A stretch of 64,000 nt of DNA from Octopus vulgaris (taxonomy: Eukaryota), in contig OX597819.1 in assembly GCA_951406725.2 (NCBI GenBank), positions 56,296,001-56,360,000 of the forward strand, given 5' to 3'. Below are positions 22,184 through 60,900 of this stretch, one piece after another; the stretch's first letter is position 1; each line of letters begins with the position of its first letter. The notes under the pieces were generated by a model. That model searched no databases. It was given only the letters and a program-made list of their open reading frames with translations, and was not told where the DNA came from. Both the position numbers and the translations under genes were made by a program.

Positions 22184-22218
<35 letters not shown>

Positions 22219-22410
22219 ATACTAAGCAATAAAGGGTTTAGCAACGAATTGCCTTACCACAGACCGAATTTAGAAATAGCAGTCAAAGAGTTATAGCTAT
22301 TTCTTCTACTAAAAAGGGAGATCTCAGTAAAAGACACAGCAATTGGAAGGCAGACACAAACAGGTAAGAGAGAATGAATTGACGGCAATCTATCATACAA
22401 TTTTAAGTTA

Positions 22411-22510
22411 TCTACGGACGCACGTTTCGAAATCAAGTTTTTAGGAAAGCATGAGAATTAAATATTAAATAATTCTACGTTACCCAAACTTCTTTTCTCT
22501 TCAGCGTAGA
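22411..22510 (-). ncRNA. type-I hammerhead ribozyme (inverted copy)
   Basis: TCTACG-CTGAAGA-GAAA...TTTC-GAAA-CGTGC-GTC|CGTAGA. Confidence 0.85.
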
Positions 22511-22650
22511 ATACTATAATCATAAGTGAATTTATATTGAATTTTGAGATACTAGAAGGCACCAACTCAACTCAGTATCAGAGCGAGCTAGAATCCGCAA
22601 CTAGTATCACCAAACTCAAAGTGTGAATGAAAGGATTGTGTCACCAGCCC

Positions 22651-22744
22651 CTGAAGAGAAAAGAAGTTTGGGTAACGTAGAATTATTTAATATTTAATTC
22701 TCATGCTTTCCTAAAAACTTGATTTCGAAACGTGCGTCCGTAGA
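22651..22744 (+). ncRNA. hammerhead copy lacking the 5' strand of stem I (inversion junction)
   Basis: Begins exactly at CTGAAGA. The remainder is near-identical to 23246-23339. Confidence 0.7.
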
Positions 22745-23239
22745 TAACTTAAAATTGTATGATAGATTGCCGTCAATTCATTCTCTCTTACCTGTTTGTG
22801 TCTGCCTTCCAATTGCTGTGTTTTTTACTGAGATCTCCCTTTTAGTAGAAGAAATAGCTATAACTCTTTGACTGCTATTTCTAAATTCGGTCTGTGGTAA
22901 GGCAATTCGTTGCTAAACCCTTTATTGCTTAGTATTACTTAAATTTTCCTCGAATGAGGCTTTTACATGCCGAAGACTACTTGGTGTAATTGATAATTAT
23001 TCCAAATTAATTAATTTCACCCTTCATTATTACGGATAACCATATTTTATCTCAGTAGATGACCATAGCATCTTGTTTTGGCTACACGCGGGTGGGAAGG
23101 GGCTGGTGACACAATCCTTTCATTCACACTTTGAGTTTGGTGATACTAGTTGCGGATTCTAGCTCGCTCTGATACTGAGTTGAGTTGGTGCCTTCTAGTA
23201 TCTCAAAATTCAATATATAATCACTTATGATTATAGTAT

Positions 23240-23339
23240 TCTACGCTGAAGAGAAAAGAAGGTTGGGTAACGTAGAATTATTTAATATTTAATTCTCATG
23301 CTTTCCTAAAAACTTGATTTCGAAACGTGCGTCCGTAGA
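23240..23339 (+). ncRNA. type-I hammerhead ribozyme
   Basis: Stem I TCTACG/CGTAGA, core CTGAAGA, stem II GAAA/TTTC with a long insert, GAAA, quasi-palindromic ACGTGCGT stem III. Predicted GUC cleavage after 23333. Confidence 0.85.
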
Positions 23340-23632
23340 TAACTTAAAATTGTATGATAGATTGCCGTCAATTCATTCTCTCTTACCTGTTTGTGTCTGC
23401 CTTCCAATTGCTGTGTTTTTTACTGAGATCTCCCTTTTTAGTAGAAGAAATAGCTATAACTCTTTGACTGCTATTTCTAAATTCGGTCTGTGGTAAGGCA
23501 ATTCGTTGCTAAACCCTTTATTGCTTAGTATTACTTAAATTTTCCTCGAATGAGGCTTTTACATGCCGAAGACTACTTGGTGTAATTGATAATTATTCCA
23601 AATTAATTAATTTCACCCTTCATTATTACGGA

Positions 23633-23749
<117 letters not shown>

Positions 23750-33227: not shown

Positions 33228-33323
33228 GAACCCAAGGAAATAAACAGAGAGAGAGAATAAACAAACTTTTGGAGTTAGCGGTCAATCATGGCGTATATAT
33301 ATATATATATATATATACATATA

Positions 33324-33957
33324 TAAAATAAATATAAGAGAGTGGTCACTATATGGCTCACTCTAGCACTAGTTAATCCAAAAGGTTTCAACCACAAAAA
33401 TACATGTTTCCCATGAAAGTCAGTACGATTGTTAGCTCACACGGACAGGGCAAATAAAAAATAACAAAAATACAGATTATTTTGGGACAATTGTTTCGCT
33501 ATTAATGAATTAAATGTAATTTTACTTACAAAAAAATCCACTTGTAGCTCGTCAGCCAAAACTATCTGGATGAAATCCACTCAATCACACGCCAGATTTT
33601 ACCATAACGATAAATACACGTGTGGTTCAATTGATTACATCCGACGTTATAATTCAAATGCCCCAACTAACAGCGCGCCAAACTTTCACGGAAAACAAAT
33701 ACTGCATTTAGAAATAAATGTAGCATAATTATAATTAATTAATAAGGGTGAGAGAATTAGATACTAATTTAATAGCATATCTATTCAACACCAAGTGGTC
33801 TAGTGCTCCGAGAAACCTGGATTATTATAATATTTTATAATATATTATAATATTTTTACAAAATAAATATAAGAGAGTGGTCACTATATGGCTCACTCTA
33901 GCACTAGTTAATCCAAAAGGTTTCAACCACAAAAATACATGTTTCCCATGAAAGTCA
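33324..33957 (-). mobile_element. ORF-less hammerhead element, 535-bp unit with ~99-bp terminal direct repeat, in TA-rich microsatellite
   Basis: 33324-33422 is identical by eye to 33859-33957. Single internal hammerhead. Confidence 0.85.
33480..33561 (-). ncRNA. type-I hammerhead ribozyme
   Basis: TTTTGG-CTGACGA-GCTA...TAGC-GAAA-CAATT-GTC|CCAAAA. Canonical core, palindrome ACAATTGT. Confidence 0.9.
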
Positions 33958-33974
33958 ACATACATATATATATG

Positions 33975-34250
33975 TGTGTGGTTAGGGCAGCGGCTCGTGG
34001 TCGTAGGATTGCGATTTCGATTCCCAGACCGGGCGTTGTCAGTGTTTATTGAGCGAAAACACCTAAAAGCTCCACGAGGCTCCGGCAGGGGGTGGTGATC
34101 CTTGCTGTACTCTTTCACCACTCTTTCTTCTGTTGGCCTGCTCGCTTAGCGAGCGGGATGGCGTCATTCGAAGGCTAAAACAATGCGAACGCATTGTGAC
34201 CAGCGATGTGTAACAACATCTGATGGTCTTGTCGGTCACGTGATCACGTA
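33975..34250 (+). mobile_element. SINE family C, tail variant 2 (RTE-like tail)
   Basis: Head and body match 120-270 inverted. Tail ends GTCGGTCACGTGATCACGT. Confidence 0.8.
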
Positions 34251-43526: not shown

Positions 43527-44359
43527 CATACATACACACACATTTAAACACACGTGTTATTCTGTCTCTAAATTATGTTATTGTTTTGGCGTAGCCACTG
43601 ATGAGAACGTCGCCTAGCAAATTATTTTATTTGCTAATTAGAGTTCGAAATCTAGGTATGGCTGTAAAAAAAAAACAAGGTAAAAGATTTTATTTTTCAT
43701 TTCCTTCGAAATTGTTCTTGATGTGGTTTTGGTCGTTTTGACTGCTCCTTCTAGCATGTACGGCTGCCTGTTAAGGGACGCCTCTTTTGTATTTTAAATG
43801 TACACTAAAGTTATATATATATGCGTGTGGGAGCATGTATTTAAGTAATTCTGTTTGTGTGCATGATGAGAAAGAGATACAGGGAGAGAGAGAGAGAATT
43901 AAGAAGAGTAACTCACATCCTTTATGATGATAAAACACATTTTGTCTCGGGTTCAATGTCAACTATTGTTTATCACATCTATACCGTACACACACATGTA
44001 AGTTAAACATTGAGAAGCAACTCCCACACGCAGATACACACCCACGCAGACACATTCATACATATATATACCATTAAAATAATATCCTGAAATAATTTAT
44101 TGTTTGTAGAAGAAATAGCGGAACATAAATTGTTGAACGTAAAATAAGAAATTTCTCTTAATGTATCGCTTTTTTATATTTTTATTGAAAGTGATGTTTA
44201 TTTTATAATTTTATTTGTAAAATGCAGAATATCATGTATTGATACTTAAACAAATTCCAGGGAAAATAATGTTTGAAATACTGTGACATACCAATGTATT
44301 GCCTCAACGCCTACTATTGTGAATATTACGATAAGCAATGAAAATAAAAGTACTATTTC

Positions 44360-48390: not shown

Positions 48391-48478
48391 CTTCCGACAC
48401 ATGTTTCGAAAAAAACATTGGTATTATTCCCAAGGAATAAAATGGTGTAAAACAATGTAATCTTCTCATCAGAGAAAG
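48391..48478 (-). ncRNA. type-I hammerhead with long stem II
   Basis: CTTTCT-CTGATGA-GAAGA..ACATTG...CAATGT..TTTTC-GAAA-CATGT-GTC|GGAAG. Confidence 0.7.
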
Positions 48479-57944: not shown

Positions 57945-60900
57945 CAGAGATACCCGGCGTTGCCCGGTTACATTCAATTGAAGAATTAGACTTTTCTGTT
58001 ATACCTTCTGTAATGAACTGGAACATCTAAGTTATGAATTTCATCAAAATTGCAGATAAGGGTTAATTCCCTCTTTACACACCCTAAAACATTGTAATCG
58101 TGCCACATGTATCCCATATTACTGATTTTTATGCGCATATTCCAAAATTCCAGTCTTATTGAACCTGTTAAAAATATTTTGCTCCTGAAAAATGAAGGTC
58201 ATGGAGCTCTAAAATGTGAGAGTTAAGGCCCCTGTTGGTGGGGGGGGGGGGCATCTTAATGTCAACCAGAGAAGTTGAATAGTTGAAAATCTTTTTAACT
58301 TGGGTCTTATATCTATTGTTTGAATTTCTTTGAAATAGGAAATATATGTTCACTGGATTTGTAAAAGAGAGCAAAGCTAAAGGAAACAAAAAGACGAATG
58401 ATCACAATAAGCAGTCAGTTACCCTACCCTAGTCGGTACCACTCCCAATGTAGGATTCATCACCATCCAGGTGACAGGCAAAGCCGTAAGATGCATTACG
58501 AATCTCTATGGCAATTGGAAGGGCGTGACCCAACTGAAATTAACATTAACAACTGTGTGACGTGAGGGCTAAGGAGTTTGCAGATGACCACTATGCTGAT
58601 ACGTAACTGGAGAGATTAATTTTAAAATCTATAAATGTCTTTGAATAACCAGTCACTCATCTGGCAAGGCCTTGAAATCAATGTTACCATCTGGGGACTA
58701 TGTGTCACCGAGTGATAATAAAAAGACTGAAAGAAAGTCTGCAATCAAATAAATTTACGCAACACTTTGCAACTGAATCAGTGGTTGCAAAGATGCCTCT
58801 CATTTACTTGACAATTTATGCAACACATTGCAGAAATCACAATGTAAGTGTATGTCAAATTAAACTGTTACACTGTTGTACCATTGAATTAGAAATAATT
58901 CCCAACTTTTATGCTCGGGTACAGTTTCCAAGAGCACAACTGTATTCGTTTTTGCTTAGATAAAATGACAAAATTGTGCGTGTTAAGTCCCCATGGAGGG
59001 GTCTTTCTAACTTCGTAAGAAAATAAATTTTATAAATATCACTTCATTTGTGTCTAATATCTATGGTTAAAATTTCATCAACAGCAAAAATATATGAATT
59101 GTCATGGGGGTTATGGACCTTATGCATAGAATATAATTTCCAAATTTCATAAAGATACATTCAGTACTTTTGACCTAGTTTGGATCATAAAAGAAATGAC
59201 TAAAATTTGGGAGTTAAGGCTCACATTAGAGTGTTATATATATATATATATACACGCACACATACAAAGATAGATTGATAGATACAACTGAGTGGGTAAA
59301 CAAAAATATGAGACACAGCCTAGTGCTTTTTTATGTTGATAAGCCTAGTACTTATTCTATTAGTTTGTTCTTGTGAAACCAGTAAGTTATGTGGATGTAA
59401 ATAAATGAACAGCAGTTGTGAAGCAGTGATGAGGGGAAACACAAAGACAAAGACACACACATACACTTACATATATACATATATATACGATTGATTTGTT
59501 TCAGTTCCTGTCTACGAAATCCATATATATTGTTGTTGGCATCCTTGTTGTCTCGGGAGACAATGGAGTTGCGCATAAAATAGTCTAGTCCGGCTTTTAC
59601 ATTTCATGTTCTAATACATCTCCTGCTGTGGCTGTGTAGTCCTATCCTGGACGGACACTCACTCTGGCAGGTGCCGCAAATGCAGCGAAGACTTTGCCTG
59701 GCTGGTTGTAATGTCCTAGTTTCTTGTTGACGTCTTTTCTTGTCTTTCCATTTCTCCTCTCTCTCTATGTCACTTCTGTGTGTTCCCTCTTTTACGGTAC
59801 GTCGCCAATCTCCACGGTTGCTGGCAACTGCTTCCCAGTTGGTAATATTGATGTTGCAGGCATTCATGTCCCATTTGCAAACGTCCTTGTATCGTAAGAA
59901 CGCTCTTCCCACAGACCTAGTGCCCCTAGTAAGCTCCTCGTTGAGTATGTCCTTGGGGATTCTGCCATCTCCTGTACGGCTAACATGTCCAAGCCATCTC
60001 ATACGTCTTTGTGTGAGGAGTGCAAATATGCTTAGTATTCCTGCTTGCTTGAGGACATCTTTGTTGGGGACATGGTTCTGTCATTTGATGCGAAGGATTT
60101 TCCGGAGGCAGCGCAGGTGAAAGATATTTAGGCGACGTATGGCGTCGTATGGCGTGTGTATGGCGTCCAAGTCTCACTTCCATACAGTAGAGTGCTAAGT
60201 ACACATGCCTGGTAAATCTTCATTTTTGTGGTCTTGGTCAGCTTATTGTTGTCCCATGCCCGTTTGGAGAGTTGGGCCATCACAGTAGCTGCCTTGCCAA
60301 TGCGTATATTGAGCTCAGCAACAAGGGATAGGTTGTAGGTGACGGTAGAGCCAAGATAGGTAAACTTCTCCACATCTTGTAGTCTGTGGTCTCCAATATG
60401 TAAGTTTGGGATGTCCAATGTAGCTTGACCCATGATGTTGGTTTTCTTGACGCTGATAACTAAGCCAAAGTTGCCACATGCTTGCTCAAAACAGTTGATG
60501 AGCCTTTGTAGGGTTTCTTCTGTGTGTGATACCAGAGCGGCACCATCAGCAAATAGCATCTCCTTGATCAGGACGCTTCTGATTTTGGTCTTGGCACGCA
60601 GATGCGAGAGATTGAACAGTTTCCCATCACTTCTACTGTGCAGAAACAGTCCATCATCTGATGTCTGAAAGGCATGTGACAGCAGCAGCGAGAAGATGAC
60701 AAATAATGTAAGAGCAAGGACACAACCTTGCTTTATTCCGTTTTTAATTTGGAAGGCGGCTGTTGTTGAACCATTGTGCTGTATGGTGCCTTGCATATCA
60801 TCATGGAAAGATTTGATGATCCTCAGCAGCTTTGGTGGACATCGGATTTTTTGGAGCAGGATGAAGAGGCCTTTTCTACTTACCAAGTCAAAGGCCGATC

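Follow-up and report, generated by a model that had tools for sequence, protein, structure and literature searches.

Animal retrozymes were defined by Cervera and de la Pena (PMC7229834) and in a review (PMC7761336), which propose that the reverse transcriptase (RT) of Penelope-like elements (PLEs) copies circles into tandem cDNA. In the preprint by Li et al. (10.64898/2026.07.22.740005), a PLE origin is backed by co-occurrence and by pLTR similarity in vertebrates. How animal retrozymes spread and what role the hammerheads of PLEs play are questions that these texts leave open. For the PLEs themselves, Craig et al. (PMC8557442) give as marks of insertion partial tandems, an inverted 5'-truncated copy and a tail of 30-40 bp at one end. 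In the work of Frangieh et al. (PMC11167929) on PAc, this tail corresponds to the interval between a pair of internal RT start sites, cutting and extension affect both strands of the target, and a dimeric protein is predicted; uncut RNA is the preferred and main substrate in vitro, where PAc can do without its hammerhead.

Here we describe a 535-nt hammerhead unit of Octopus vulgaris which is likely an animal non-LTR retrozyme, and likely copied by a Penelope enzyme. It shares with these retrozymes a non-coding tandem unit of low GC (32%) with one type I hammerhead, a 2-bp stem III capped by a tetraloop, a strongly self-paired monomer, dispersed copies from monomer to multimer, PLEs in the same genome and the lack of an LTR structure. 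Its unit is longer than the 170-400 nt of the tested species, but lies within the range of 51-972 bp of the preprint. Unlike in those studies, cleavage and circles are here predicted from DNA, and mobilisation by PLEs, argued there from co-occurrence or pLTR similarity, is argued here from the ends of the insertions; in the main texts of these papers and in literature searches we came across no study that relates the ends of retrozyme insertions to a pair of start sites. Plant LTR retrozymes differ by a type III hammerhead carried in fixed LTRs.

The window copy and its hammerhead

The window is a stretch of 64,000 nucleotides (contig OX597819.1, positions 56,296,001 to 56,360,000). The insertion occupies 33325..33957 on the minus strand and represents 1.18 passes of the unit in a single, 5'-truncated arm with one predicted cut site. 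Unit positions are numbered in the ribozyme sense, position 1 being window 33957. The first pass through unit 1-98 (33860..33957) begins at the truncation point, and the second pass (33325..33422), identical to the first, ends at the fixed 3' end that we call site A (unit 98, window 33325), where it is joined to a (TA)n target (33294..33324). A TA/CA/TG run follows the 5' junction (33958..33978), and then a high-copy repeat. A first-pass annotation of this DNA had noted the TA-rich flanks, which hold, and a direct repeat of ~99 bp with period 535; the period is correct and the repeat is real, exact over 98 nt. As the copy is one site-A arm of 633 nt, what was described as terminal redundancy is a second round carried on for 98 nt. 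Having a single cut site, such a copy would probably be unable to release a monomer by itself. The absence of coding capacity was also borne out: no stop-to-stop frame of the circularised unit is longer than 48 aa in the ribozyme sense or 87 aa in the opposite sense, and no RT or GIY-YIG frame is present in the 535 nt, which is thus not an autonomous PLE. Elsewhere in the window, we observed by eye a near-perfect inverted repeat of ~55 nt per arm (32585-32640/32641-32700), and an RT fragment lies at 60128-60898 on the minus strand (PF00078, E 2.6e-13).

The type I hammerhead lies at 33479..33562 on the minus strand. Its core CUGACGA (33555-33549) is accompanied by stem I (GUUUUGG/CCAAAAU), stem II (GCUA/UAGC, 33548-33545/33501-33498, with a 43-nt insert), GAAA (33497-33494), the palindromic stem III ACAAUUGU (33494-33487) and a GUC triplet, with the predicted cut after 33486, i.e. 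unit 472. A motif scan of the window retrieved 5 hammerheads, where 100 shuffles yielded 0.05 on average and never more than 1, in line with the canonical hammerhead recognised in the first-pass annotation. An Rfam search returned no hammerhead, whether at the gathering threshold or at E<=5. Two further canonical type I hammerheads of other families are found next to TA runs, at 43591-43665 (+) and 48391-48477 (-). Across the subfamilies of the 535-nt element the catalytic core is kept: core changes affect mainly N7 (C/A/G, three alleles), which is a free position of the hammerhead core, as well as U4, and a subfamily with U4C spreads well. Another subfamily change, A477G, restores a pair of stem I. 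The monomer is strongly self-paired (z -6.7, 0/100 shuffles as good), and its lowest-energy fold blocks the ribozyme (-28.3 versus -22.7 kcal/mol), the active fold lying 5.6 kcal/mol above.

We searched 2.8 Gb of genome sequence in 227 contigs. With the 633-nt insertion as query, 137 matches were obtained from 40 scored candidates out of 1,268. Exact probes gave 211 matches for the core of the window subfamily, a count that concerns this subfamily and not the whole family, and 2,411, 1,895 and 1,089 matches for three other positions. The family is young and exceeds 2,000 units, and the insertion in the window is one copy of a dispersed family, which rules out a local duplication unique to this locus, one of the outcomes named in advance as a refutation. 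Copies range from monomers to multimers, with arrays of 10-14 units, and the length of the "terminal repeat" differs from copy to copy, so that there is no fixed LTR. Two samples were analysed. Sample 1 (72 insertions) comprised all loci of the first 100 of the 211 core matches together with the best hits; sample 2 (31 insertions on contig C1) was picked by the other probes and is enriched in long arrays. Two duplicate rows (L087 and L088, duplicates of L086) were excluded, as were L063 from the later variant counts, the stray second segments of L063 and L073 and, where stated, three long arrays. L086-L088 (C6:667000-704900) are three occurrences of a single insertion, spaced over 35 kb and beside a LINE-type RT frame.

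Insertion ends and Penelope-like elements

Among the 103 insertions, 3' ends in the ribozyme sense fall, within a few bases, at unit 98 (site A) or unit 228 (site B). The 130 nt between these sites form a tail (window 33730..33859, minus strand); site B (33730) is the 3' end of about half of the family arms and is internal in the window copy. Use of the two sites is strict. In sample 1, 45 of the 48 two-armed insertions combine one A and one B end, the other 3 having an unresolved end, and A/A or B/B pairs number 0; single arms end at A or B in 23/24 cases (13 A, 10 B, 1 elsewhere). Sample 2 shows no exception: its 16 two-armed insertions are all mixed, and each of its 15 single arms has its end at A or B. 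Altogether, 61/64 back-to-back insertions use one site per arm, and none uses the same site twice. (TA)3 adjoins 115 of the 117 3' ends of sample 1. The 5' ends are scattered over 101 distinct positions in these 117 arms (chi-square p 0.20), none at the predicted cut (unit 473) in either sample (0/117 in sample 1); one arm of L086-L088 that apparently ended at the cut site proved to be an artefact of a mismatch. The lengths of paired arms are uncorrelated (rho -0.02), and their 5' ends are not clearly close to each other (p 0.08). Scattered permutation points had been proposed as the signature of a circular template: this was found for the 5' ends, whereas the 3' ends are fixed at unit 98 or 228. 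The fixed ends do not refute a circle, since they resemble the pair of internal sites at which Penelope-like elements start reverse transcription.

The same end pattern is displayed by autonomous PLEs of this genome. A first family, Hydra-1, has two ends 72 nt apart, a (TA)n target and its own hammerhead, and 9/9 of its two-armed insertions with both ends seen are mixed; its 727-aa frame carries the RWK, DKT and CxCX5C motifs given for Hydra (PMC8557442), and its assignment to Nematis was rejected on these motifs. A second family with a related 722-aa frame (Hydra-2) also has two ends. The genome further contains a young Neptune-type PLE with a 781-aa frame (RT, GIY-YIG and a CX4CxxC linker). 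Because the 535-nt family and autonomous Hydra-clade PLEs share this end pattern, mobilisation of the family by a PLE is very likely. With EN+ PLEs, and the Hydra clade especially, it has in common partial tandems, an inverted 5'-truncated arm, a tail at one end (PMC8557442; PMC11167929), two internal RT start sites, a TA-rich target and a hammerhead upstream of the start sites. It differs from them in its unit without ORF and in its tail, which is matched in none of the PLE families examined and measures 130 nt compared to 30-40 nt in the PLE papers and ~70 nt in the two local Hydra families. Like the non-autonomous MRC1 of Chlamys (PMC8557442), it is non-autonomous, multi-copy in head-to-tail arrangement and, very likely, PLE-dependent; however, elements of the MRC1 type are described as generally resembling the 3' end of their autonomous partner, and belong to a clade described as without canonical hammerheads.

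Several searches for an autonomous partner were negative. The PLE loci that we retrieved cover the Neptune-type family and the two Hydra-type ones; none of these loci has a matching tail and none shows pLTR homology. None of the 31 frames scanned (30 of them flanking) revealed an ORF-bearing copy of the family. PLE proteins found near copies by tblastn with two proteins turned out to be nested neighbours, and the likeness of the tail to that of Hydra-1 was reached by 1,203 of 2,000 shuffles and is not above chance. We also noted a very young Hydra-type PLE with a 3.36-kb unit and a canonical hammerhead (L192, G000:C27:15429500-15439400), many copies of which are 99-100% identical in protein, and hammerhead elements of another family nested in TA runs at Neptune 3' ends (L128 and L109), the one in L128 having two ends ~120 nt apart.

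The tail itself links the 535-nt unit to a 595-nt hammerhead unit also present in the window. The first-pass annotation saw no similarity between them, which is contradicted by an alignment over the tail with a local score of 66, compared to 34.5 +/- 5.3 (maximum 52) for 300 shuffles. The common part is a predicted hairpin, ACUUGGUGU...CACCCUU (33744..33796, minus strand; core also written ACUUGGUG...CACCCU), which recurs in other sister families; its pattern gave 769 matches against 0 for a control, and the 595-nt family prevails among the 100 matches listed. A two-armed insertion of this sister family, at 22215..23641, follows the two-end pattern of the 535-nt family with a tail of ~105 nt. 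Six clearly resolved two-armed 595-nt insertions are of the mixed type; L154 is an exception. The two families are probably sister parasites of one enzyme. A 595-like tail seen in one Hydra-2 subfamily is not the PLE's own tail, but belongs to a passenger insertion in a TA run: the small two-armed element sits in the TA-rich 3' region, once per tandem unit (L246:2300-2520, L237-L245). A further sister family has the same tail motif (L133:600-2640, L207 and L220; core CCGAUGA in L207).

Nature of the copied template

We consider it probable that the hammerhead repeat is cut to 535-nt monomers, which are circularised and then reverse-transcribed into (TA)n DNA by a PLE protein with RT and GIY-YIG domains. 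Multi-unit copies would be transcribed, cut by the hammerhead at unit 472 and closed as monomers by a ligase. As suggested by the insertion ends and by the biochemistry of PAc (PMC11167929), the PLE protein, probably a dimer, would then nick both strands of a TA run and prime each strand at one of the two fixed internal sites, 98 and 228. The later steps can be read from the DNA: each arm goes back through the unit over a variable length, often of more than one round, up to a random stop, and the two cDNAs are joined head to head. The window copy retained the site-A arm of 633 nt.

A circular template is favoured by the seamless crossing of the cut site and by the near-identity of units within an insertion (0.2-0.3% divergence versus 1-2.6% between insertions). 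In sample 1, whose selection for the core biases such counts upwards, 36/117 arms cross the cut site twice, and the site was exact in 148 of 154 passes, substituted in 5 and altered by an indel in 1. Successive passes diverge by 0.33%, compared to 1.03% between insertions, and alleles common to at least 3 insertions are concordant between successive passes in 51/52 cases (60/65 when three long arrays are included). Variants private to one of the 72 insertions sampled, out of a family that is far larger, also recur in successive passes of one arm (13 variants in 10 insertions). The monomers of sample 2 diverge by 0.27% inside an arm and by 0.19% from one arm to the other, compared to 2.57% from insertion to insertion, and the nearest neighbour lies in the same insertion for 69/69 monomers, ties included. 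The subfamily changes of the core, which spare all but N7 and U4, and the stem I pair restored by A477G speak for a circle as well. Points against it are the spread of the U4C subfamily and the inherited variants, which show no significant depletion in the ribozyme (p 0.52). The circular or tandem RNA template advanced in the first-pass annotation fits these data, although the link to Penelope had been missed.

Alternatively, the same PLE enzyme may copy uncut, linear multimeric transcripts of tandem arrays, the ribozyme being incidental or serving another step. This agrees with the preference of PAc for unprocessed RNA in vitro (PMC11167929), with the full tandems that autonomous PLEs make as well, with the arrays of 10-14 units and with the lowest-energy fold, which blocks the ribozyme. 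Mosaic sites in 3/10 long arrays (4 sites) point the same way: L291 (G000:C1:176055500-176064000), a ten-monomer two-armed array, mixes two core alleles and is mosaic at unit 373 (A/G) and 404 (C/T), with patterns that are not aligned between arms. Homogeneous source arrays may also exist outside the samples. Yet single-pass variants outnumber all-pass variants (114 versus 36), while shared alleles are discordant in only 1/52 cases. The long arrays L067 and L097 have periodic higher-order variants, the core of L067 being changed in about every second unit, and the unit-specific variants of these two arrays appear in no other sampled insertion. Moreover, copying from a linear template can only shorten arrays, and the catalytic core is conserved across subfamilies. 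On balance we regard linear multimers as an unlikely template, albeit one that keeps an appreciable share of probability.

A self-cut linear monomer, with multimers arising as the RT jumps from the end of one molecule to the next, would impose the same monomer bottleneck, and jumps between molecules would explain mosaic arrays such as L291. Against it, the cut site is free of scars in 153/154 passes, no 5' end of the 117 falls at unit 473 and there is no excess just 3' of the cut (1,895 versus 2,411 exact matches, a comparison confounded by subfamily variants), which makes it improbable. Amplification at the DNA level without an RNA step, by satellite expansion or DNA circles, is highly improbable and largely refuted as a route of dispersal, since it leaves unexplained the two strand-specific fixed 3' ends, their strict one-of-each pairing, the (TA)n target and the same pattern in autonomous PLEs; the higher-order periodic variants of three long arrays, as from unequal exchange after insertion, make it a possible source of growth of some arrays.

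Possible expression and editing, and significance

Contigs from 4 of 23 listed runs were analysed. Run X1, presumed to be RNA, contains one 565-nt contig (535+30) whose ends join up and whose haplotype is the one most common in the genome; such a contig could stem from a circle, from a tandem transcript or from tandem DNA. In contigs of run X2, also presumed to be RNA, 13 differences are left once 8 rows that are common genomic alleles have been removed, and A>G on the ribozyme strand accounts for 11 of them, T>C for 1 (p 0.006); this excess comes from a single run, and two of the 11 sites also reach a high share in X7 and X15. Among the genomic variants, A>G changes make up 12/36 of the all-pass, inherited variants and 12/114 of the single-pass ones (p 0.003). 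The X2 excess hints at editing; T>C is likewise raised among all-pass variants (7/36), so that the A>G excess falls short of showing it. In a more specific form of the circular reading, one PLE dimer primes both strands on a single closed 535-nt ring and copies it as a rolling circle, each insertion becoming a multi-pass record that includes A-to-I edits. This is possible but rather doubtful; under it, the several hammerhead families that share one tail hairpin would compete for one enzyme.

The element is a real, young family of an already known kind, and its value lies in the testability of the proposed mechanism. It offers countable genomic support for the proposed route, a PLE enzyme working on a circular template, and provides exact start sites and a short RNA for testing in vitro. 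Finally, the strictness with which paired arms divide the two start sites between them constrains the mechanism of PLEs themselves.
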